From a virus (lineage: Duplodnaviria > Caudoviricetes), in IMG/VR virus record IMGVR_UViG_3300012347_000179, positions 1 to 32,093 of that record: a stretch of 32,093 nucleotides of DNA. The stretch is one strand, 5' to 3'. Made by a program: the position numbers and the translations under genes. Below are positions 151 to 32,093 of the stretch, piece by piece. Position 1 is the stretch's first letter; every line of letters starts with the position of its first letter. The notes under the pieces were generated by a model. The model was not told the DNA's origin. It did not search any database and worked only from the letters and a program-made list of their open reading frames with translations.

Positions 151-264
151 AGAAACTTTTTCTTTAACCGCTTTTTCTACTGCATCTTTAATAGTTGCGT
201 TTTCTGCTTCATAGATAAATAATACATTACCAAAAATACTTTTAATTTCAATTTTTGTTTTCAT
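1..264 (-). CDS. Pentapeptide-repeat protein, N-terminal part (continues at 32093-31816 across the window ends)
   Basis: ATG at 264 reads [38 protein letters not shown] followed by L(S/R)SA(N/D) x10, open to base 1. It has an upstream TAnnTTTG promoter and an A-rich leader. Absent from the ORF track. Confidence 0.9.
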
Positions 265-295
265 AATATTTTGTTTTAATTGTTATTTGATAGGG

Positions 296-1341: not shown

Positions 1342-2544
1342 TTAAAATATTATAGGATTAATACTTTTTTGGTTTTCGTAATAGTTAAAAATAATAAAAC
1401 TGCTATTTGTGTTTTTAAAGTTTGTTTTTACCCAGTCGCTTGGCGGACTAAATGCCCCAAAGTTTTGATATTCAAAAGCAGATGAAGAAGTAAAATCTAA
1501 TAATAATTGGTGGCTATCACCCTTGCTAAATTCTATTGTATAGTTATGTAGTCTATACTCATCAATATAATTTTTAATTTTTTCAATTTGTACAGCATCT
1601 AAATGCGGTTTAAAACCAAACTTCATATTTTTATCATCCTTACCGTGAGTTAAAATAAAACATCTGTTTTCTACGATATAATGGTCTATAAATTTTCTTT
1701 GATTGACTACCTTAACATTTTCGTATTTAAGCTCTATATATGCTTTAAATGCACTATTAACAATATATCCAAAACTTCCAGCGTGGTTATCATTACAAAT
1801 ATTAATACATTCTATACTATTGTAGTAAGGAATTAAAGCATCTATTAAACGTATTTTAAAACCTAACCCAACATCAAACGCTTTTTGGTTATCCATATTT
1901 TGCGGTAAACTATGCCCACCACGAGTAGTTACTGCATCATAGCCATCCATAAAATCGCCAAGCTCGTGTATAATTAAAGTATCTGATTGCTTGTTAATTA
2001 AAGTTTGTGAAACCATAATTTCTAAACGTTTTTCTACTTCTGCTTCATTCCAAACGCCATCATATAAACTATATCCGTTTTGGTTTACTTCCATACCAAT
2101 ATGCACATCAGTATAAACTAACCTGTCAAATATTGATAAATCTAATTTGTTTGAAATTTTAGGTAATTTAATTGGCTTAACTAAATCTTTAAAAATATTA
2201 GTGAAATCAATTTCTTTTTCTAATTCTACTTCTGTTTGTGGTTCTATGTATTCTGGGTTCTTTACAAATATACTACTTTGCTTTGTTTTAAGCCACATAT
2301 GTTTAACCGAAGTATTAGGTACATCTAAATCATTTGTAGCATTATAAATACCCTCGTGCTGGTCTAATAATCTTGCTCTATGCCTTTTAATATATGTGCG
2401 AAGTAAATCTACATCACTATTAACATTACCACCATCATTAGTATTTAATAGTTTTTTAGCTATTTCTGTATCAGTACAATTTTTATTAGCTTGTAATAAT
2501 TCAGTTAATTGTACATCGTAATCATTCCATTTTGAAAATCTCAT
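1342..2544 (-). CDS. Calcineurin-like metallophosphoesterase with N-terminal extension
   Basis: Motifs TDVHIG, LGDFMDG, NDNH, THG and GDSH occur in canonical order. Confidence 0.8.
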   Translation of the reverse strand: MRFSKWNDYDVQLTELLQANKNCTDTEIAKKLLNTNDGGNVNSDVDLLRTYIKRHRARLLDQHEGIYNATNDLDVPNTSVKHMWLKTKQSSIFVKNPEYIEPQTEVELEKEIDFTNIFKDLVKPIKLPKISNKLDLSIFDRLVYTDVHIGMEVNQNGYSLYDGVWNEAEVEKRLEIMVSQTLINKQSDTLIIHELGDFMDGYDAVTTRGGHSLPQNMDNQKAFDVGLGFKIRLIDALIPYYNSIECINICNDNHAGSFGYIVNSAFKAYIELKYENVKVVNQRKFIDHYIVENRCFILTHGKDDKNMKFGFKPHLDAVQIEKIKNYIDEYRLHNYTIEFSKGDSHQLLLDFTSSSAFEYQNFGAFSPPSDWVKTNFKNTNSSFIIFNYYENQKSINPIIF

Positions 2545-2568: not shown

Positions 2569-2598
2569 CAAATATATAAAAATATTTTGTATATCAAA
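2569..2598 (-). promoter_or_regulatory. Host-type promoter for the phosphoesterase operon
   Basis: Minus strand TTTG-N18-TATATTTG. Confidence 0.7.
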
Positions 2599-2615
2599 AA
2601 AATATGTTATATTTG
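2586..2615 (+). promoter_or_regulatory. Host-type promoter on the plus strand with no downstream ORF
   Basis: TTTG (2586-2589)-N18-TATATTTG (2608-2615). Confidence 0.65.
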
Positions 2616-2619
2616 CGTA

Positions 2620-2682
2620 TTCATAATTTGTTTTGATTAATAGTTAAGAAAAAACCCTTGCAGTATTTGTAAGGGTTTTTTT
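2620..2682 (+). ncRNA. Candidate ~62-nt small RNA antisense to translation-initiation regions
   Basis: Bounded by a plus-strand promoter and a terminator; the 5' part TTCATAATTTGTTTTGATT is complementary to early-gene leaders. Confidence 0.5.
2649..2682. terminator. Bidirectional intrinsic terminator
   Basis: AAAAAA-CCCTTGCA-GTATT-TGTAAGGG-TTTTTTT, immediately downstream of the endolysin stop. Confidence 0.85.
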
Positions 2683-2684
2683 GA

Positions 2685-3092
2685 TTAAATGTTTTTATAT
2701 TCTTGCTTGGCTTCAAAACTCGGACAGGCTTTATTTACGCCAAAATCTTTATGTCCCTGGACTATTGCGTTAGGAAATTGTTTTTTAGCTTGTTTTATTA
2801 GATATAATAAACTTTCTTTTTGTTTTGGTGTTCTGGTATCTTTTGGCTTTCCTTTTTCATCTATACCACCAATATAACTAAAATGTATTGAATTAGAATT
2901 ATAACCTTTAACACCGTTAGTAATTTGCTCATAGTTTGCTAATTCGTGTATAATTCCGTTAGCATCTATTAACCTATGATAACCTACAGAATTCCATTTT
3001 AAAACATCTTTCCAATAGTTTAAAATTGCTTGTTTTGTAGCGTTTGGCTGTGAAGCTGTGCAATGAATTACTATATAATCAATATTTCTCAT
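2685..3092 (-). CDS. Endolysin, N-acetylmuramoyl-L-alanine amidase (T7 lysozyme-like, Amidase_2)
   Basis: IVIHCTA, GYH, YIGG, GHKDF and KACPSF motifs. Confidence 0.93.
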   Translation of the reverse strand: MRNIDYIVIHCTASQPNATKQAILNYWKDVLKWNSVGYHRLIDANGIIHELANYEQITNGVKGYNSNSIHFSYIGGIDEKGKPKDTRTPKQKESLLYLIKQAKKQFPNAIVQGHKDFGVNKACPSFEAKQEYKNI

Positions 3093-7994: not shown

Positions 7995-8030
7995 AAAAAA
8001 AAAGCGAGAATTGTTTAAAATCTCGCTTTT
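7995..8030 (-). terminator. Intrinsic terminator after the major tail gene
   Basis: AAAAGCGAGA...TCTCGCTTTT stem followed by a T9 run on the minus strand. Confidence 0.85.
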
Positions 8031-8051
8031 CAAAGTATTTATTAATTAAAT

Positions 8052-8579
8052 TTATGAACCAACTACTACTGTGAAACCTGCAGCAGTTAAAGTATCTCCG
8101 ATAAAGTTAGCAGGTACTTTTTCTTGTCCTGTTAAACTTAAAGTATAACCTGATAAATCTCCCATTGCACCACCTGTTACAATAGTACCACCTGTTACAT
8201 CCATACCGTGCTGTAAACCTGCGTAAAAGAAATTACCGTTGTTATCTTCTACGATAACTTGAGGGCGACCGTAAGCCAATAGTTTTAATTCTTTATTATC
8301 TTTTGGAGTTAATTTTTTAAATGTTAATTCCAAAACTTGCTCGAAAAACGTTGTTCCGTTTTCTCTTGAGCTATTAACGTTTTGAGTAAAGGTAGAAGCA
8401 CCTTTCAACTCATATTTATAAGCACTTGGAGTACCTGCAACCGCATCGATTACATCCGTATTTGTAGCGTCGTAAGTGTAACCTGTTGCATCTCCGTAAT
8501 TAACGAAGTAAACATTTTTTAAACCACCTACGCTATCTTTACATACTTCCAATCTACCTAAACTTAAATCACAAGCCAT
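8052..8579 (-). CDS. Major tail tube protein
   Basis: MAC...CKDSVGGLKNVYF...ENGTTFFEQ...VEDNNG pattern of Bacteroidota siphovirus tube proteins; flanked by terminators. Confidence 0.75.
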   Translation of the reverse strand: MACDLSLGRLEVCKDSVGGLKNVYFVNYGDATGYTYDATNTDVIDAVAGTPSAYKYELKGASTFTQNVNSSRENGTTFFEQVLELTFKKLTPKDNKELKLLAYGRPQVIVEDNNGNFFYAGLQHGMDVTGGTIVTGGAMGDLSGYTLSLTGQEKVPANFIGDTLTAAGFTVVVGS

Positions 8580-8600
8580 AGTATATATTTTTTAAAAGTT

Positions 8601-8633
8601 AAAAAAAAAGGTGGCGTTTATTGCACCACCTTT
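8601..8633 (-). terminator. Intrinsic terminator after the capsid gene
   Basis: AAAGGTGG...CCACCTTT stem followed by a T run on the minus strand. Confidence 0.8.
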
Positions 8634-8653
8634 AATTAGTTATTTGTTATTAA

Positions 8654-9586
8654 TTATGCTGGAGTGTAAAGTACGATTTCAGAACCTACACCGTATTGAA
8701 CACCTGCAGTAAATCTCATTACAACTCTTACATTTTGACTTCCGTCAATATCTGCCATATCAATTAATTTAACTTCGTTATGGTCAGATAATAAACCTGT
8801 ACCGAAATATAAGTTAGATTTTTGAGCAGCCATCATATAGTTAGAAGCTAATCCGTTAGCAACAAAGATTTTAACACCATCAAAAGAAAGTGAACCATTG
8901 TTAAACCATTGTGTACCTTGTGAGTTAGTACCGTTAGCACCTAAACCTGAAGCAGCAAATCCGCCTAAAGCTCTTACGTAAGCACGAGCTACGTTTTGAG
9001 AAACATAGATATATAAATCTTCTTTTCCGTATAATGCAGATGGAATAGCATCAACTACTTTACCTAATTCAGCAATTACGTTAGAAGCAGTAACTGTAGT
9101 ACCAACTACATCAATAACAGTTGCATCAGCAGTAGCTAAAGGCACAAATCCGTCAAATTGTCCTGCTGTAGCGTTAGCACCTCTCCAAATAGATACTTCG
9201 TTGTTTTCTGCTACTTTAGCAGCAACGTGTCCGATTAAATAATCAGCAAAAGATTTTGGTAAAGTTTCAAAAGCAGACATTCCCATTTCAATAGATTGCC
9301 AAGTACTTGCGAAATCTTTTTTACATAATTCTAAATTTACCTGAAATTCCTCAGGAGTAATAACTCTTTCAGTTAAAGTAACTGTAGAAGTTGCATCAAA
9401 AGCACAAGTAGCATTTTTAACGATAGCATCAGTAGCTAAACGTTGGATAACTGATTTGTACTTTACGTTTGGCATTACTTCAATTCCACCATTTTCAATA
9501 GTAGAAGCTGATAATAATGCAGCTGAAATGTATTTTTTTGAAAATTCACCAGCATAAGTTGTTGTAATACTTGTTGTAGTAGCCAT
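8654..9586 (-). CDS. Major capsid protein
   Basis: 310 aa, follows the scaffold gene; TTTYAGEF...NLELCKKDF...VRVVMRFTAGVQYG. Confidence 0.88.
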   Translation of the reverse strand: MATTTSITTTYAGEFSKKYISAALLSASTIENGGIEVMPNVKYKSVIQRLATDAIVKNATCAFDATSTVTLTERVITPEEFQVNLELCKKDFASTWQSIEMGMSAFETLPKSFADYLIGHVAAKVAENNEVSIWRGANATAGQFDGFVPLATADATVIDVVGTTVTASNVIAELGKVVDAIPSALYGKEDLYIYVSQNVARAYVRALGGFAASGLGANGTNSQGTQWFNNGSLSFDGVKIFVANGLASNYMMAAQKSNLYFGTGLLSDHNEVKLIDMADIDGSQNVRVVMRFTAGVQYGVGSEIVLYTPA

Positions 9587-9602
9587 TTTTTTTAATTAAT
9601 TA

Positions 9603-10166
9603 TTAGTTTGCTATTTTATTCATTACTCTGTCGAAAGTAGTCATTACTCTGTTTTGAGAAAATAACACTTTTTCAACGTTTGGTTTTGCATCAGGGTTGT
9701 GTGTTAAAGGTTGTGCAGACAATTCTACTACTTCTTTTACCTCTACATTTTTCATAGATGCTAATTCCGTTTTTAAACTTTCGATTTCTGACTTTAAAGC
9801 ATCAACATCTTCTTTTGAAAAATGCGACTCTTTAACTGTAGACTCGATTACTTTTTTAGCGGTTGCTGTTTGTGCTGCCTCAACTTCAACTTCTACTTCA
9901 GGTGCTGCTTCCTCTACAGGTGCTTCAACTGCTGCTTCTTTGATTTCTTTGATTTCGCCTTCAACTTCAACTACTAAAATCATTCCGTTATCAAGAGTAT
10001 ACTCACCTACAGGCAATGCAACTCTATCTTCACCATTAACAATAAACACCGCTTGACCTGCTTCAAACATTTCTGCTTCAATTACGGTTCCGTTGTCTAA
10101 TGTCATTTGCTCAAGTTTGATTTCCATACCAAGCAATTTTTTGATTTCTGTAATTACGTTTGACAT
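9603..10166 (-). CDS. Capsid scaffold protein (putative)
   Basis: Acidic, LPVGEYTLDNG motif plus coiled coil; immediately upstream of the capsid gene. Confidence 0.7.
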   Translation of the reverse strand: MSNVITEIKKLLGMEIKLEQMTLDNGTVIEAEMFEAGQAVFIVNGEDRVALPVGEYTLDNGMILVVEVEGEIKEIKEAAVEAPVEEAAPEVEVEVEAAQTATAKKVIESTVKESHFSKEDVDALKSEIESLKTELASMKNVEVKEVVELSAQPLTHNPDAKPNVEKVLFSQNRVMTTFDRVMNKIAN

Positions 10167-10176
10167 ATTTATTAAA

Positions 10177-10208
10177 TTTATTTAAAAACAATAGTTTTTA
10201 ATTGTTGT
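10177..10208 (-). promoter_or_regulatory. Putative late promoter (scaffold/capsid)
   Basis: ACAA-N14-TGTTTTTAAATAAA. Confidence 0.75.
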
Positions 10209-10237
10209 TGTATTTTTAAAAATTATTTATATATTTG
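10208..10237 (+). promoter_or_regulatory. Host-type promoter for the plus-strand three-gene insert
   Basis: TTG-N19-TATATTTG. Confidence 0.7.
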
Positions 10238-10260
10238 TTGAAACAATTAAAACAAATATT

Positions 10261-10491
10261 ATGAAAACAGCAATGCAAGAATTATTTAGCCAATTAGAAA
10301 TTGAGTATCCTAATTTATTTAATACAAACACTTTGGATGGTAGAAAGTTTATAAATGATTATTATAAATTTTTTGAATTGGAAAAAAAACAACTTAATGA
10401 AGCACTTAATTATGATAGACCTTTTTTATGTTGTTGGGAAGATAATTCTGCATTTGAAGAATATTACAATCAAACATTTAAAAATAAATAA
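10261..10491 (+). CDS. Small protein, MKTA...EKKQ...YYNQTF family
   Basis: Resembles 23413 and 31386. Confidence 0.8.
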   Translation: MKTAMQELFSQLEIEYPNLFNTNTLDGRKFINDYYKFFELEKKQLNEALNYDRPFLCCWEDNSAFEEYYNQTFKNK

Positions 10492-10493
10492 TT

Positions 10494-10727
10494 ATGGGAG
10501 ATATTTATAAAGAGCATATAAAAACAGAAGCTTTTAATTTATTTTTTCAGTTTTATAGAGATATTATTTCAGATGAAAAAAAAGCAAAAGAATGTGCTTT
10601 AATATCATTAAAATTTTCTAAACAATCTGATTATAGATTTAAACCTATGTATGGTGGTTGGATATGTGGTATATCTTATTTTAAAGATATAGAAGAAGCA
10701 ATTAAAAATATAAATTATGAAAAGTAA
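10494..10727 (+). CDS. Small protein, AKxCALI family
   Basis: KAKECALISL motif. Confidence 0.75.
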   Translation: MGDIYKEHIKTEAFNLFFQFYRDIISDEKKAKECALISLKFSKQSDYRFKPMYGGWICGISYFKDIEEAIKNINYEK

Positions 10728-10932
10728 ACTTTTACGTAAAATAAGAAATAAAATAACAATAGAAAAACAAGGTACTAAATATTTTTTAATTGATAAGTTT
10801 TTAAATATTGAAAACGAATTTTATAAAAATATTAATTATAAAGAAATTTTACAAATAAGGAGAAATAAAATTTTATATAATGCTTATATATTATATGATA
10901 AAAAAATAAAAATAACTAAAAAAGGGTACTAA
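10717..10932 (+). CDS. Small basic hypothetical protein
   Basis: Overlaps the previous gene and ends in the terminator. Confidence 0.7.
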   Translation: MKSKLLRKIRNKITIEKQGTKYFLIDKFLNIENEFYKNINYKEILQIRRNKILYNAYILYDKKIKITKKGY

Positions 10933-10952
10933 TTATAGTACCCTTAATTTTT
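10918..10952. terminator. Bidirectional terminator between convergent genes
   Basis: AAGGGTACTA-ATTA-TAGTACCCTT perfect stem. Confidence 0.85.
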
Positions 10953-11295
10953 AAACAGATAACAATCTATTTATTATTGTGTCAATAGCGTTTATATTGC
11001 CATTAACTTCTGACTTTGCTTTTTGTACTTTAGCTAATTCACTATCTAAACCTAAATCTTTTATTAATCTTTCTGCTTTATCAAGTTCTTTAATTAATTC
11101 TTTGTTCTTCTTTAAAGAAACATCTGCTAATTTAGCGGCTTGATTCTTTAATTCTAAAGCTTTAATAACTTCTTTATTTGCTTCTGCTAAAGTTCCTTTT
11201 AAATCATCATATATTGTAGCTAATTCAATTTCGTGTTTACTTAATTCAGTTTTAGTAAATAATTTACCAAATACGTTTTTTTCTTGTGGTGTCAT
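10951..11295 (-). CDS. Coiled-coil hypothetical protein (head module)
   Basis: Heptad-rich 114 aa. Confidence 0.7.
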   Translation of the reverse strand: MTPQEKNVFGKLFTKTELSKHEIELATIYDDLKGTLAEANKEVIKALELKNQAAKLADVSLKKNKELIKELDKAERLIKDLGLDSELAKVQKAKSEVNGNINAIDTIINRLLSV

Positions 11296-11298
11296 TGT

Positions 11299-11493
11299 TT
11301 ATCCGTTTACTCTTGTTATTACTCTTACTCCGTTGTTTTCTGTAACGGTTAAACTATCTACTCCTGATGTTTGCCCAATGCCTTGATTTTGTAAATCACC
11401 ATTGCAACATTCTTTACTATAAGTGTTATCATCACATAGACAACCCTTTTTACCATTTACTGGACTTGTTTTACTTTTTGTTTTCGTACTCAT
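11299..11493 (-). CDS. Small Cys-rich head-module protein
   Basis: CLCDDNTYSKECCNG. Confidence 0.75.
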   Translation of the reverse strand: MSTKTKSKTSPVNGKKGCLCDDNTYSKECCNGDLQNQGIGQTSGVDSLTVTENNGVRVITRVNG

Positions 11494-12064
11494 TTATTAA
11501 AGATTTAATTTGTTCAACAATACTTTCGTTTTTACTTAACTGCTTTTTTTCTTCTAATTTATCTGCAAAATAACCCTCAAGGCTAAAACCTTTTACTTTA
11601 CCTGTTTTTACATAGTCATTCCAAATAGCATCATCTTCTACTTTAACCGAAGCCATCCAAGTACCTACAGGTACACTTAAATTATAAATAGCTGATTTAT
11701 CTTTTTCGGTATTTTCAACTATCCAACTTTCAACTACGGTTAAGCCTTTAATTTCTTTACTGTGTTCTAAAGTCCAATTATTTTGGTTGCCATTTTTAAA
11801 AAATAATTGACTTGCTTTATTTACAGTATCTTTTGAAAAATAAATATAATATTCATCTTCTCCATTGCGTCTATAAATTGGCTTTTCAGGAATTAAAACC
11901 GCACCCATTAAAATACGTTTTTCAGTATCTACTTGAGCTAATTTAATTTCTTCAGATTTTAACGCTACGAAATTGGACTCAATAGCAGGTGTAGCTACTA
12001 CACTAATAGCATCTACTCCGCTTAATTCGTCTTTCTCGTCTATTATTAATTCTATTAAATTCAT
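11471..12064 (-). CDS. Prohead protease (XkdF-like)
   Basis: AISVVATPAIE, TLEH, VVESWI, VGTW and VKGFSLEG motifs. Confidence 0.82.
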   Translation of the reverse strand: MNLIELIIDEKDELSGVDAISVVATPAIESNFVALKSEEIKLAQVDTEKRILMGAVLIPEKPIYRRNGEDEYYIYFSKDTVNKASQLFFKNGNQNNWTLEHSKEIKGLTVVESWIVENTEKDKSAIYNLSVPVGTWMASVKVEDDAIWNDYVKTGKVKGFSLEGYFADKLEEKKQLSKNESIVEQIKSLINEYENKK

Positions 12065-12069
12065 ATCGT

Positions 12070-12101
12070 TTTATTTAAAAACATTAATTATTAAATTTTG
12101 T
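12070..12101 (-). promoter_or_regulatory. Putative late promoter (protease operon)
   Basis: ACAA-N14-TGTTTTTAAATAAA. Confidence 0.75.
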
Positions 12102-12107
12102 TATTTT

Positions 12108-14135
12108 TTATCCTATACTTGCGTTACTAACTATATTTCTGTCTAACGCTTGCTGAGTAGTAACTTGGTTAGCAACTACATACGCTTGTACAGGTTGTTG
12201 ACTTCCTAACGTTTGTGCTAATTGATTTACACCTGTGTTACCTACTACGTTAAATTGTGGTGCTGGTGGTGCTGTAGGTGAATCTCCACCTGTACTACCT
12301 GAAGAAGCAGAACCACCGCCACCTAAAGCCCCTAATGCTTTTGTAGTTGCCGATATATTTGCTGCTATTCCAATACCTGCACCTACTTTATTTATTGCTA
12401 TTTCAGCAGCAGATAAAGCTGTACCACCTGGCAACAAAGCATATTTTAATTTAGCCGCAGCATTTGCCGCTTGTGTATTAATTATAATTTTAGAAATACC
12501 TATAGCACTCTCTGCTATTAAAGCCGCTTTTTGTAATCCTTTATTTTTTTCAAACAAACCTTTAAACAAACCTATACCTGCTGAAGCTGTATCTAATGCT
12601 TGGTTTTGTATTGATAACTTTGCCTCTGCAACAGCTCTATCTATTTCAATTTGTTTATCAGCAATTACTTTAGCATCATCTAATTTTTTCTGTGCTTCGG
12701 CTTTTGCTTTTTCATCTTCTGCTAATTTCTTTTCAGCATCTTCTTTATCAAATTTATCTTGTAACTCTTTTTCCTTTGTACGTTGTGCTTCTTTTAATGC
12801 AGTTGTATCTTGGTCGTATTTTGTAGCTTCCTCAATTAGTAATCTATATTGCTCTTGAATTTGTCTTAATTCCTCTGCTCTACGTTCTGCCTCTGTGTCT
12901 ATTTCACCTTGTCTAATACGTTCTAAAGCCTCTGCACGTTCTTTTTCTAATGCAATAGCTTTATCTTTAGCTTCTTTTGCATCATCGTTAGCCTTATCAG
13001 CTGCCTCTTTTCTTTTAGATGCTGCTTCAGTGCCTGCTTGTTTGTCAATATTATTTATAGAAAGTTGTAAACCTGCTCTATCGTTTTTAAGTTTTTCAAT
13101 ACTTTTTAAACTTTCTTTTCTTGTAGCTTCTGCTGCTGCTTTTTCTGCTACAGGGTCAAAAATCAAACTTGCACCTTTATCTAATATTTTACTAAATCCT
13201 GCAGATAAACCAAAATCTTTACCAATAGCAGAACCAATACTATCAATAGTTTTTAATACAGTTTGAAAAGGAATAGTTAAAAATTCTAAAGTACCTTTTA
13301 AAATATCTTTATTTCTTTTAGCTGCTTCAATTTGTGCCTTTGCAGTTATATCATTTTGTACAATTTGGTTTTCAGTTGCTTTTATTACTTGGTCTGTTTG
13401 AGCAATTTTAAGTTTTAAAATATCCTTTTCAGATTTACCTTGTAATTTTAATACATTATCTTGGCTACCTATTGTGTCAAGTTTTCCTTGCTCTGTATCT
13501 AAATTGGTTTGAGCTAATTCATTTAATTTTTCCTGTTCAGCACTTACACCATTAACCGCCTCTTTAATATCATCCCAATAAACAGCAACAGCACCAACTG
13601 CAACTAATAAAAGCCCAATACCTGTAGCTGCTATTCCTGTTCTAATTCCTGCTAAAGCATTTTTAGCAACCGCACCCATTTGCTTAAAACTATCTATACT
13701 CTCTCCTAAACCTTGCAATCCTTGAGATAAAGCCATGGCAGCCTGAAGCCTAACCATAGTTTCCTGTAGGTTTTCACTTTCTACACCTGCTAACGCTAAA
13801 CTTCCCTCTACAGCAGCGAACCCACTTGCAACACCACTTAACGAACCTGATAACGCATTAAATTTAGCATCAGGATTAAACGCATCAGTTAAAGCTTTTG
13901 CATCGCCAATAGCATCTTTTAATTCACCTGCTCTTTTAGCTGCTTCAATAGCCTCTTTTGAAGTTGCTCCAAACTTTTCAGATAACTCTGCTACTTCTGC
14001 TTGTGCTTCTCTTAATTGGCTTTTTAAAGATTGTGTAGCTTTATCCGCACCCTCAATAGAATTAGTTATATTATTTATTCCAGCAGTAGCACCACTACTA
14101 TTTAAATCAATTTCTATCGTTTTTGTAATTGCCAT
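12108..14135 (-). CDS. Tail tape measure protein
   Basis: 675 aa, Ala/Gly-rich helical with a hydrophobic segment and long coiled coils. Confidence 0.88.
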   Translation of the reverse strand: MAITKTIEIDLNSSGATAGINNITNSIEGADKATQSLKSQLREAQAEVAELSEKFGATSKEAIEAAKRAGELKDAIGDAKALTDAFNPDAKFNALSGSLSGVASGFAAVEGSLALAGVESENLQETMVRLQAAMALSQGLQGLGESIDSFKQMGAVAKNALAGIRTGIAATGIGLLLVAVGAVAVYWDDIKEAVNGVSAEQEKLNELAQTNLDTEQGKLDTIGSQDNVLKLQGKSEKDILKLKIAQTDQVIKATENQIVQNDITAKAQIEAAKRNKDILKGTLEFLTIPFQTVLKTIDSIGSAIGKDFGLSAGFSKILDKGASLIFDPVAEKAAAEATRKESLKSIEKLKNDRAGLQLSINNIDKQAGTEAASKRKEAADKANDDAKEAKDKAIALEKERAEALERIRQGEIDTEAERRAEELRQIQEQYRLLIEEATKYDQDTTALKEAQRTKEKELQDKFDKEDAEKKLAEDEKAKAEAQKKLDDAKVIADKQIEIDRAVAEAKLSIQNQALDTASAGIGLFKGLFEKNKGLQKAALIAESAIGISKIIINTQAANAAAKLKYALLPGGTALSAAEIAINKVGAGIGIAANISATTKALGALGGGGSASSGSTGGDSPTAPPAPQFNVVGNTGVNQLAQTLGSQQPVQAYVVANQVTTQQALDRNIVSNASIG

Positions 14136-22974: not shown

Positions 22975-23181
22975 TTAAAAGTTTTCTATTTCTTGTTTAA
23001 CTTCTTGTAAAAATTCAATATGAAAATCATTGTATTGAATTGCTAAATCAACTGCAATTAATGCACATTGTTTGGCTGATTTCCAATTTCTTTCTAATAT
23101 AATCCCAAAATGTATTGGCTCAATAGTTTCTGCATAATGCTCAACTAATTCTTTTGCTTGTTCCACTGCTGATTGTTTCAT
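22975..23181 (-). CDS. Small protein, AKxCALI family
   Basis: Nucleotide-level identity blocks shared with 30975..31190. Confidence 0.8.
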   Translation of the reverse strand: MKQSAVEQAKELVEHYAETIEPIHFGIILERNWKSAKQCALIAVDLAIQYNDFHIEFLQEVKQEIENF

Positions 23182-23694: not shown

Positions 23695-23781
23695 TTAAAG
23701 AATAAAGAATAATATTGTAAAAAATACTACCCAATAAACTGTAATTAATAATACATCTGATAATGTTAGTTTTGCTTTCAT
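23695..23781 (-). CDS. 28-aa single-TM peptide
   Basis: MKAKLTLSDVLLITVYWVVFFTILFFIL; first ORF after an early promoter. Confidence 0.65.
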   Translation of the reverse strand: MKAKLTLSDVLLITVYWVVFFTILFFIL

Positions 23782-23815
23782 AATTTTTTTGTTTTAATTG
23801 TTAATAATTGTTTGG

Positions 23816-27110: not shown

Positions 27111-27612
27111 AATAGTTTATATCTTTTAATAATTCGTTTGCAGTTTTTACAAAACTTTTTTCTACTAATTCAAAATCCCAATTCTTTTTTAATTGTTCTA
27201 TAATTTCTTTTTGGTTTTCTGAAATTATATTTTTATCGTTTTGCTTTTGCTCATCTGTTAATAAATTTGGGTTTGAAGTATTAACACCTATTGAGTTAAA
27301 ATAATTTGTTAGTTCTGTATTGTTTAAATTTTTTTGTAAATATATTAAGTTGTAATTTAATGACAAAGATAAATCTGATTTAATTTTCTTTATTGCTTCC
27401 TCAATACTTCCGTAATACATTAAATTCTGATTTAACTGTATTGCTAATAATTTAGCATATAATAAATTTTGAGTTACAAATTGTTTGTTTTTATTTTCTA
27501 ACGCTGTATTTAATAATTTTAATGCTTCTATATCTTCGCTATAGATATTGTTTTTATTTCGTTTAAATACGTTGTAAATGCGTTTAAATGCGTTTTGTTC
27601 AGTCCAACTCAT
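27103..27612 (-). CDS. Hypothetical protein (replication module)
   Basis: Lies between the initiator and the helicase. Confidence 0.7.
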   Translation of the reverse strand: MSWTEQNAFKRIYNVFKRNKNNIYSEDIEALKLLNTALENKNKQFVTQNLLYAKLLAIQLNQNLMYYGSIEEAIKKIKSDLSLSLNYNLIYLQKNLNNTELTNYFNSIGVNTSNPNLLTDEQKQNDKNIISENQKEIIEQLKKNWDFELVEKSFVKTANELLKDINYYE

Positions 27613-28235
27613 AACCTATCTTGTTTAATTTGTTGTTTAGGTGCAAAAGTCTTATCATTTCTTACCCAAGTTGCTAACCTGCGTTCAATATCAAAAGTTT
27701 TTTGTAATTCAAAAAGCATTTTAGTTTTAGATAAATTAGGTTCAGTCCAATATTGAAAAAAGTTTTTAAGTAAATCCATTTCGTATTTGTTTTTAAATGG
27801 TACTAATTTTTCTTTAAAAGCGAGTGTGCGAATTTCTAAATTCGCTTTACTATCTTTATTTATTACATTTACATTAACACTATCATTTACACTAACACTT
27901 ACAGTTGAATTTGTTGAAGTTTGTTGAACAAAATCAACATTTGTTGAATTTGTTAAAGTTTGTTCTTTTAATTTTGCTAATCTTCTTGCTTCTGCAGATG
28001 CTTTACCTGCTGCTGAACGACCTTCTTTAGTTTGTTCCCACTTCTTTAAATCACGTTTTAATTGTAATTTAATCATTTCAAAAACTATAGCAATAGAATT
28101 ATCAATTACAGGATTTTCATCGTTTACATAAGAAAATAATGTTTTTAAAAGTATACCAGCTTGTTCATTAGTCATTAAATCAATAATAGATTTACTATCA
28201 GAATACAATACAAATGAAGTTTTATCTTTAGCCAT
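27609..28235 (-). CDS. Replication initiator-like protein (DUF6291-like N-terminus)
   Basis: KTSFVLY...EQAGILLK, GRSAAGKAS, low-complexity linker, FFQYWTE...ERRLATW. Confidence 0.75.
   Translation of the reverse strand: MAKDKTSFVLYSDSKSIIDLMTNEQAGILLKTLFSYVNDENPVIDNSIAIVFEMIKLQLKRDLKKWEQTKEGRSAAGKASAEARRLAKLKEQTLTNSTNVDFVQQTSTNSTVSVSVNDSVNVNVINKDSKANLEIRTLAFKEKLVPFKNKYEMDLLKNFFQYWTEPNLSKTKMLFELQKTFDIERRLATWVRNDKTFAPKQQIKQDRL
27904..27957. repeat. Iteron-like TTTGTTGAA repeats, putative replication origin
   Basis: Copies at 27910, 27920, 27940 and 27949 (variant), plus inverted partial copies. Confidence 0.6.
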
Positions 28236-28434: not shown

Positions 28435-28473
28435 AACTATAAAGGTTTAAAGATTACCTATAACTATTAAATT

Positions 28474-28570
28474 AAAAAACCCTATTAAGTCAGCAGTATT
28501 GTGAGAAGTGCTTTCCTAATAGGATTTTGTATAATTTTTTCGATAAATTTGCAATGCTTCTCACTTCATT
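28474..28570 (-). ncRNA. Structured leader/attenuator candidate
   Basis: 5' GTGAGAAG is complementary to CTTCTCAC lying in the loop of a CCTATTAG/TTAATAGG stem followed by T6. Confidence 0.55.
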
Positions 28571-28596
28571 ACTTTGCAAGTATAATATTTTAATTT

Positions 28597-28624
28597 AAAC
28601 CTGCAAAATTAATTACAGGTTTTT
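28597..28624 (-). terminator. Hairpin terminator after the DUF3127 gene
   Basis: AAACCTGTAA...TTGCAGGTTT on the minus strand. Confidence 0.65.
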
Positions 28625-29525: not shown

Positions 29526-29966
29526 TTAGTATTTTACTGTTAAACTATCTGAAGCATATTTTACGCTTACTTTTGGTACATCATTTCCATAAGCATCAAT
29601 TACATCTTGTTTTAACGCAAGTTTTAATAATTCTTCACGTTGTTTTAATTCCTCATTTAGTTTTATCCAAATCTCATCTTCTGAAAATTGTATCATTATT
29701 CTGCCGTTAGTAGGGCTAAATTCACAGCCCATTTCAGTAACTTTAATGTCTTTTACTGAATCTTTTAAAATAGTTACAGCATTGCTTACAACATCGTTTA
29801 AACGCACCAAATTAGCTAAAGCCGTATGCTTTGAAACATTACCACTATCAATAATGTTTTTAGCTAAATTTTGCCCAGTTGAAACAGCTTCTTTTTTACT
29901 AAAGTTAGCAGGATATAAACTTGCTACTTCTTGTTCTCTTAATTCTAAAAATTGATTTTTGCTCAT
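29526..29966 (-). CDS. Hypothetical protein (recombination operon)
   Basis: First gene after an early promoter. Confidence 0.75.
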   Translation of the reverse strand: MSKNQFLELREQEVASLYPANFSKKEAVSTGQNLAKNIIDSGNVSKHTALANLVRLNDVVSNAVTILKDSVKDIKVTEMGCEFSPTNGRIMIQFSEDEIWIKLNEELKQREELLKLALKQDVIDAYGNDVPKVSVKYASDSLTVKY

Positions 29967-29994
29967 AATATTTTTGTTTTAATTATTAATACTG

Positions 29995-30036
29995 CAAATG
30001 TAAATATAATTTATTTAATAAAAAAATGTTTTACTA
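29995..30036 (-). promoter_or_regulatory. Early promoter (TACATTTG) with imperfect operator 30016-30036
   Basis: TAATAAAAAA-A-TGTTTTACTA. Confidence 0.7.
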
Positions 30037-30974: not shown

Positions 30975-31190
30975 TTATAGTTTTAAAATTTCTTGTTTAA
31001 CTTCTTGCCAATAGCTTTTATTTACTTCTCCTTTGAAAATATTTGTTTCCACTTCAATAGCTAAATCAACTGCTATTAATGCACATTGTTTGGCATCTTC
31101 AGGGACTGGTAAAATGTAACAAAAATTTAATCTGTCTCTACATCTTAAATATTTATTTACTAATCTTGTTGCGCTTTCTTCTGGTGTCAT
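30975..31190 (-). CDS. Small protein, AKxCALI family
   Basis: AKQCALIAVDLAI...YWQEVKQEI. Confidence 0.8.
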   Translation of the reverse strand: MTPEESATRLVNKYLRCRDRLNFCYILPVPEDAKQCALIAVDLAIEVETNIFKGEVNKSYWQEVKQEILKL

Positions 31191-31815: not shown

Positions 31816-32093
31816 CTATTTATTTAAAAAAGTTAAATAAGCCTTATACGCTTCATATACTGCTTGTATTTGTTTAAAATCTTCTGTGTTACGTTCTGTT
31901 GAGTAAACTTCATCGCTTTCAAAGAAACTATCCCAATCTTCAATAGTTTTACTTTTGCAACCTATTTGTATTTTATCGTCAATAATTGAGTTACTCCACT
32001 TACAAAAAATAGGTAAATAAGCATTTTCTTTATTTTCAGCTGAACGCAAGTTGGCTGAACTCAAGTCGGCTGAACTCAAGTCGGCTGAACTCA
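31816..32093 (-). CDS. Pentapeptide-repeat protein, C-terminal part
   Basis: [18 protein letters not shown] followed by an IQIGCKSKTIEDW domain; open to the window end. Confidence 0.88.
   Translation of the reverse strand, partial: SSADLSSADLSSANLRSAENKENAYLPIFCKWSNSIIDDKIQIGCKSKTIEDWDSFFESDEVYSTERNTEDFKQIQAVYEAYKAYLTFLNK
32039..32093. repeat. Same 15-nt tandem repeat as 1-150, about 3.6 copies
   Basis: Directly visible. Confidence 0.95.

Follow-up and report, generated by a model that had tools for sequence, protein, structure and literature searches.

Genomic context and anatomy of the locus

The window, i.e., the whole stretch of DNA analysed here, is a virus record of 32,093 bases with a G+C content of 28.6%, and the cultured phages closest to it infect Flavobacterium and Cellulophaga. 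A pentapeptide-repeat gene on the minus strand is apparently split over both ends of the record (1-264 and 31816-32093), which suggests a circularly permuted whole genome. The element considered in this work, a candidate small RNA (sRNA) cassette, occupies the gap between two minus-strand genes, those for the endolysin and for a phosphoesterase/exonuclease-like protein of ~400 aa (Table 1), and the latter gene is a frequent neighbour of the cassette among related phages.

Table 1. Features of the candidate sRNA locus and leaders with predicted pairing to its 5′ arm
Feature	Position	Strand	Basis
ORF 2544, 400-aa calcineurin-like phosphoesterase / exonuclease-like protein	1342..2544	-	phrog_704, E 1e-18, and annotation of relatives
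Overlapping divergent sigmaA-type promoter before ORF 2544; TATATTTG at 2576..2569, TTTG 18 nt upstream	2569..2598	-	sequence match
SigmaA-type Bacteroidota promoter; -33 TTTG 2586-2589, 18-nt spacer, -7 TATATTTG 2608-2615	2586..2615	+	sequence match
Mini-ORF MNTQI*	2607..2624	-	peptide not conserved in relatives
Weakly structured 29-nt 5′ arm	2620..2648	+	fold probabilities, duplex ranks, alignment
Anti-AUG seed TTCATAAT	2620..2627	+	complementary to start-codon regions
Anti-leader block TTGTTTTGATT	2628..2638	+	complementary to A-rich leaders
GUUAA box	2643..2647	+	within 5′ arm
Intrinsic terminator: hairpin 2655-2675, T7 2676-2682	2655..2682	+	folding; differing hairpins at the same position in relatives
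Amidase endolysin gene, convergent on the terminator	2685..3092	-	PF01510, E 5e-16
Leader of pentapeptide-repeat gene (start 264)	258..294	-	predicted duplex -14.6 kcal/mol
Leader of ORF 10261	10231..10275	+	predicted duplex -14.7 kcal/mol
Leader at 23781 (short ORF)	23767..23811	-	predicted duplex -16.3 kcal/mol
Leader of ORF 27612, top-scoring predicted target	27598..27642	-	predicted duplex -18.6 kcal/mol
Leader of ORF 29966	29952..29996	-	predicted duplex -15.8 kcal/mol

A preliminary description of this stretch had placed here a plus-strand TTTG-N18-TATATTTG promoter, followed by some 30 nt, a hairpin and a T7 tract, with no ORF on the same strand; all of these are present, and no plus-strand ORF of at least 40 aa lies over the element. 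With the -7 box placed at -12 to -5 (PMC9723704), the predicted transcription start falls at 2619-2620, so that the anti-AUG seed forms the extreme 5′ end of a predicted RNA of about 63-64 nt. Over its nucleotides 1-28 the arm has a mean unpaired probability of 0.61, i.e., the seed is only ~61% unpaired. The hairpin had also been said to favor a plus-strand transcript, in agreement with its folding energy, which by itself is -10.0 kcal/mol on the plus strand versus -5.3 kcal/mol on the minus strand; the region 2615-2690 as a whole folds at -19.5 versus -12.2 kcal/mol (z -4.1 versus -3.7). On its minus-strand side, the hairpin has a T6 tail and begins 10 nt past the endolysin stop; given the position of that stop, at 2685, it probably terminates the minus-strand late transcript as well and thus doubles as the terminator of the late operon. 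The layout may bear some resemblance to that of the guides of type VI CRISPR systems. A sigma-70 promoter/terminator scan, which does not model Bacteroidota promoters, missed the element. Between 6 and 13% of the sequence words of the region were present in an RNA run and in two further runs of doubtful nature, in all cases as contigs of relatives, so that these matches carry no information, for or against, on strand, start or level.

Conservation and mobility among related phages

Conservation downstream of the endolysin, by which the preliminary description proposed to judge the element, is borne out: of 80 endolysin loci, 18 have the cassette immediately 3′ of the endolysin, and the 60 nt comprising the hairpin and the arm are identical in all 8 close relatives compared. 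In the same 8 relatives, the four-fold sites of the endolysin gene differ at 7-12 of 29-39 positions (22-31%) and the adjoining promoter spacer has 0-8 differences; by this comparison, the hairpin and the arm appear to be under purifying selection. The -7 box fits the TAnnTTTG pattern in all 17 relatives compared, being identical in 16, with a variable spacer, and the CAUA motif of the seed is invariant among the 24 aligned phage cassettes. Among relatives, the hairpin sequence has been replaced wholesale, with its pairing and plus-strand polarity maintained, and even in distant phages with unrelated hairpin sequences the order of promoter, UCAUA seed, U-rich tract, GUUAA and terminator is kept. 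The alignment of such cassettes (A4), for which the pair counts give 92.5% paired, was fitted to the model and includes ordinary terminators, so that its pair counts do not amount to independent covariation. Five further lillamy-type records stop at the hairpin, and in lillamy9-2 the arm and the promoter box lie at the very start of the record.

Moreover, the cassette moves between gene contexts. It occurs in either orientation relative to its neighbours, lying in four phages on the same strand as the adjacent genes; in two others it is retained next to a different endolysin; and two of six records picked for having no cassette at the endolysin have one elsewhere. Altogether, 19 of the 24 phage records scanned, most of which were picked for carrying it, have a seeded cassette. 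As a separate observation, the corresponding place after the endolysin in L036 (3407-3490, minus strand) has a promoter and a terminator around a different cargo of ~50 nt, as if this sRNA slot were swappable.

The preliminary description named one reading that would have undone it, namely that the arm is the leader of a decayed minus-strand gene of which MNTQI* is the trace. In relatives with the endolysin and phosphoesterase linkage, the opposite-strand mini-ORF reads MK*, MNMQI*, MKKQI* or unrelated peptides of 8-35 aa, so that its length ranges over 2-35 aa with no common peptide; this lack of conservation makes a decayed-gene leader unlikely.

A loose pattern of promoter plus seed matched ~1,400 viral stretches, and among the 120 matches listed 12 had a terminator at the correct distance, versus 1 and 0 in displaced windows. 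A recount of the listed matches gave a terminator in 14 of 113 distinct ones, of which 6 lie in front of long ORFs on the opposite strand and probably represent ordinary combinations of a terminator and a leader, leaving 8. A pattern search of metagenomes returned only 4 complete cassettes in 89 distinct matches, all of the type seen in the window, and in short blastn searches the matches to cultured phages were all AT-rich and due to chance.

The commonness of such look-alikes (6 of 14) bears on an explanation that dispenses with a trans-acting RNA altogether: the hairpin would be the late-operon terminator, the plus-strand promoter would insulate or interfere with the promoter of ORF 2544, and the arm would be a ribosome-loading site on the minus strand, belonging to the mini-ORF or left over from a lost gene. 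The hairpin placed 10 nt past the endolysin stop with its minus-strand T6 tail, the overlap of the plus- and minus-strand promoters, and the arm itself, which is the complement of the family of strong leaders of this phage, all accord with such an arrangement. Nevertheless, we consider it rather unlikely, given that the mini-ORF encodes no common peptide, that the arm is invariant while the neighbouring sequence drifts, and that the plus-strand hairpin is about twice as stable as its minus-strand counterpart. Furthermore, where the cassette is flanked by genes on the sRNA strand, these genes would leave the leader-like strand untranscribed. The conservation, the hairpin polarity, the independence of gene context and the variability of the mini-ORF support an sRNA gene of its own on the plus strand, with a seed directed against start codons, and the element is likely to be a real phage sRNA.

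Predicted targets and specificity

The sequence AATTAAAACAA occurs 7 times in the window versus 0.60 expected, and the composite motif AAAACAAA-N0-5-TTATGA 6 times versus 0.08 expected; the six sites of the latter lie in the leaders of 264, 10261, 23781 and 29966, in that of 23676, and on the antisense strand of the element. The first four leaders had been singled out in the preliminary description as targets with a bipartite pairing site behind host-type promoters. The bipartite site is indeed present in each of them, with bulges of 3, 2, 4 and 4 nt, respectively. The promoters can be upheld only in part: the -7 box is clear, but a TTTG at the -33 spacing is found in none of the four, TTG alone being present at 10230. 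As for their status as targets, all four belong to the eight best of 60 leaders by duplex energy (27612, 23181, 23781, 29966, 2544, 23676, 10261 and 264, in this order), but they do not stand apart, the leaders of 27612, 23181, 2544 and 23676 pairing about equally well. An operator-like DNA site was set aside by inference, given that the motif is non-palindromic and keeps its register with the AUG.

Each of the top 8 duplexes outscores at least 99% of 300 shuffles, the kind of control proposed in the preliminary description, and the caveat raised there stands as well, in that the pairing is AU-rich and the scoring leaves out target accessibility. The gene run that includes 23781 also contains 23676, 23409 and 23181, all among the top 9 predicted targets. 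The leader of the phosphoesterase-like ORF 2544 has a predicted duplex of -15.7 kcal/mol, and in roughly half of 14 phages the leader of this adjoining ~400-aa gene is one of the six best. The window also encodes three paralogous ORFs of ~70 aa (phrog_21441; 1128-1340, 22975-23181 and 30975-31190), and the leaders of two of the three are within the top 12 predicted targets. Under labels that we assigned from gene position and the ORFs scanned, a duplex of -13 kcal/mol or better is predicted for 12 of 32 non-structural leaders versus 0 of 28 structural ones (p 0.002).

Across 14 phages, the seeds fit the leaders of their own phage better than those of others; the mean residual is -0.94, with negative values in 11 of 14 (permutation p 5e-5). 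Part of this own-phage fit is also obtained with antisense copies of leaders drawn at random from the same phage, for which the residuals ranged from -0.77 to +0.22 over 6 draws. Similarly, 8 of 60 antisense-of-own-leader controls equal or beat the real arm on the mean of the top 10. Host seeds of the Rfp18 type (see below) prefer non-structural leaders, too (9-13 of 32 versus 1-2 of 28 structural ones). Thus, target specificity is only partly shown, and the preference may stem from strong start sites that are rich in AU, and not from targeting that has been tuned. The complementarity of the arm to the strong leaders may, in our interpretation, reflect tuned regulation. The proposal of the preliminary description that a trans-acting RNA occludes initiation accordingly fares unevenly: it gains from the anatomy of an sRNA gene, from conservation and from the precedents of FopS and Rfp18, and it is weakened by the limited specificity, Rfp18-type seeds and the 8 of 60 antisense controls doing likewise.

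Relationship to small RNAs of the Bacteroidota

In the published description of the FopS RNAs of Bacteroides, translation is repressed by pairing beside the start codon; FopS-10 blocks translation in vitro, in work that used compensatory mutants; binding of RbpB to FopS relieves the repression; the targets are outer-membrane transporters (SusC); and one Caudovirales copy is mentioned (PMC11697453). FopS (RF04319) and GibS (RF04182) are ~65-70 nt long and combine a canonical sigmaA promoter, a single-stranded anti-AUG seed at the 5′ end, a GUUAA box, an intrinsic terminator and pairing to start codons (PMC11697453). The element in the window shares with FopS the canonical sigmaA promoter, the single-stranded 5′ stretch and the intrinsic terminator, and UUCAUA and GUUAA are common to it and to the R1/R1′ seed of FopS, whereas the sequence between them differs. 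FopS is further distinguished by its 12-15 paralogous copies, as opposed to a single cassette in the window, and by its SusC transporter targets, as opposed to the predicted non-structural genes of the phage (PMC11697453). At 2616-2683 there is no match to RF04319 even at an E value of 10 (gathering threshold 56 bits; true members score 72-82 bits), and the whole window has no Rfam match at the gathering level. Flavo-1 (RF01705; PMC2864571), likewise a flavobacterial non-coding motif, was rejected, being a GC-rich, unrelated sequence the covariance model of which has no match in the window.

When a model built from phage cassettes only was used to score 150 of the 8,000-14,000 candidates in each Flavobacterium genome, the best candidate in two of three genomes, G002 and G003, was an intergenic RNA located behind hppD, although its scores were weak, at 39.8 and 37.1 bits (E 0.02 and 0.05). 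For the comparison below, we assume the default window of CopraRNA, in which mRNA positions ~177-207 span the start codon. The hppD-linked RNA corresponds to Rfp18 (PMC9723704 Table S8), an expressed, conserved sRNA of Flavobacterium psychrophilum, nt 34-63 of which are predicted to pair at these mRNA positions (PMC9723704 Table S9). Rfp18 belongs to the host family of this phage group and, like the phage element, has a sigmaA-type promoter; its 3′ part matches the phage layout, in that a UUCAUAAUUU seed precedes a U-rich tract, then a GUUAA box and a terminator that varies, and pairing around start codons is predicted for that same tract (PMC9723704). Unlike the phage RNA, in which the seed starts at the predicted +1, Rfp18 is 97 nt long with a 5′ hairpin before the seed; it is chromosomal, mostly located between hppD and a conserved secreted-protein gene; its mid-seed sequence is unlike that of the phage; and its deletion lowered the mRNA of two predicted targets, fpp1 and THC0290_0300 (PMC9723704). 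A model of 12 Rfp18 homologues (R3), run with filters off, has no significant match at 2616-2683, and the cassettes of two relatives reach only 17-18.5 bits with the Rfp18 model (E 2-4). Thus, the layout is shared with FopS and Rfp18 but the models of both fail, so that the element cannot be filed under either; the phage element and FopS/Rfp18 could possibly have converged on the complement of the start site.

With a strict seed pattern, the hppD-linked RNA or a second seed locus was found in 15 of 151 Flavobacteriaceae genomes. This second locus, seen in four Flavobacteriaceae genomes, is a conserved chromosomal anti-AUG seed with a terminator; it converges with a gene that we take, by its C-terminus, to be tyrS-like; no TAnnTTTG box was found within 110 nt, and the locus possibly encodes an undescribed Rfp18-like RNA.

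In a sample of genomes, a terminator accompanies 18 of 60 Bacteroidota matches versus 1 of 60 from other taxa; the Bacteroidota matches are mostly FopS-like, and three that were tested exceed the FopS threshold. In five host genomes, loose patterns stayed near the reversed-pattern controls, save for FopS in G004, and 800 kb of G002 contain no seeded cassette. FopS-like combinations of seed and hairpin were also noticed outside Bacteroidaceae, in Marinoscillum, Culturomica, Parabacteroides, a Flavobacteriales MAG and other Bacteroidales, and a Bacteroides genome carries a divergent copy; those members of this set of eight that were scored fall below the Rfam threshold.

Proposed mode of action

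Bacteroidota initiate translation without Shine-Dalgarno pairing (PMC6847099), so that a single anti-leader seed can reach many genes. We lean, with a little more than even confidence, towards the view that the cassette yields a trans-acting sRNA of ~63 nt that caps the translation of roughly twelve non-structural mRNAs of the phage itself. Under this model, host sigmaA RNA polymerase would transcribe the sRNA from about position 2620, from phage entry onward, and the accumulating RNA would pair in vivo over the AUG and the upstream adenines of the non-structural mRNAs. Predicted pairing across both the AUG and the A-rich leader would likely block ribosome loading, so that early and replication proteins would be capped or turned down, with the head, tail and lysis leaders spared.

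Conceivably, the RNA is produced and binds start regions, yet acts mainly on the mRNAs of the host; the phage would then carry an imitation of Rfp18/FopS, by which the surface of the host is remodelled or its translation dampened. In the host genome tested, which may differ from that of the real host (G002; 800 kb of 3.8 Mb), 32 of 616 leaders reach -13 kcal/mol or better versus 12 of 616 control sites within genes, and extrapolating the leader count to a complete genome would give considerably more than a hundred genes; the top rank of the Rfp18 homologue with the phage-only model and the action of FopS on outer-membrane transporters (PMC11697453) fit in as well. We regard this version as unlikely, given the much higher frequency of pairing among the phage's non-structural leaders (12 of 32), the fit of the seeds to their own phage over other phages, and the different order in which host leaders are ranked by phage seeds and by Rfp18 seeds (rho 0.34).

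The sign of the regulation could also differ: in place of repression, the sRNA might protect its targets or activate them, or it might titrate an RbpB-type RNA-binding protein of the host. The reduced fpp1 and THC0290_0300 mRNA upon Rfp18 deletion (PMC9723704) and the relief of FopS repression by RbpB (PMC11697453) point in this direction; the predicted duplex, however, spans the AUG itself, which is the repressive geometry in FopS-10 (PMC11697453), and we consider such an outcome quite improbable.

Beyond capping by the RNA of this one phage, we put forward, as a tentative generalization in which we have less than even confidence, that a minimal anti-start-codon RNA, a viral equivalent of Rfp18 and FopS in hosts, is widespread among Flavobacterium phages, that its seed co-evolves with an "address" shared by early-gene leaders, and that it serves as a protein-free master switch closing early translation before the late programme; together with Rfp18, FopS and GibS, it would form one phylum-wide class adapted to initiation without Shine-Dalgarno pairing. 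If true, this would amount to RNA-based control of many genes at once in phages of Bacteroidota, and the shared layout ties together two host sRNAs, Rfp18 and FopS, that were described separately. In the literature searched, which covered few subscription journals, neither a description of such an RNA in Flavobacterium phages nor one of a link between Rfp18 and FopS came to light. The cultured Lillamyvirus phage examined has the same arrangement, spanning its record ends, so that the idea is directly testable.

Finally, the window contains another leader with a distinctive layout. Upstream of ORF 28434 (~28455-28611, minus strand), a promoter-like site is followed by a short stretch, and ~45 nt downstream of it lies a terminator-like hairpin with a loop region to which this stretch is complementary. 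A convincing Rfam match to this leader is absent. The layout recurs in relatives with different but mutually matching sequences, at nine loci of one set and six of another, and it looks like a family of attenuator or pseudoknot leaders.
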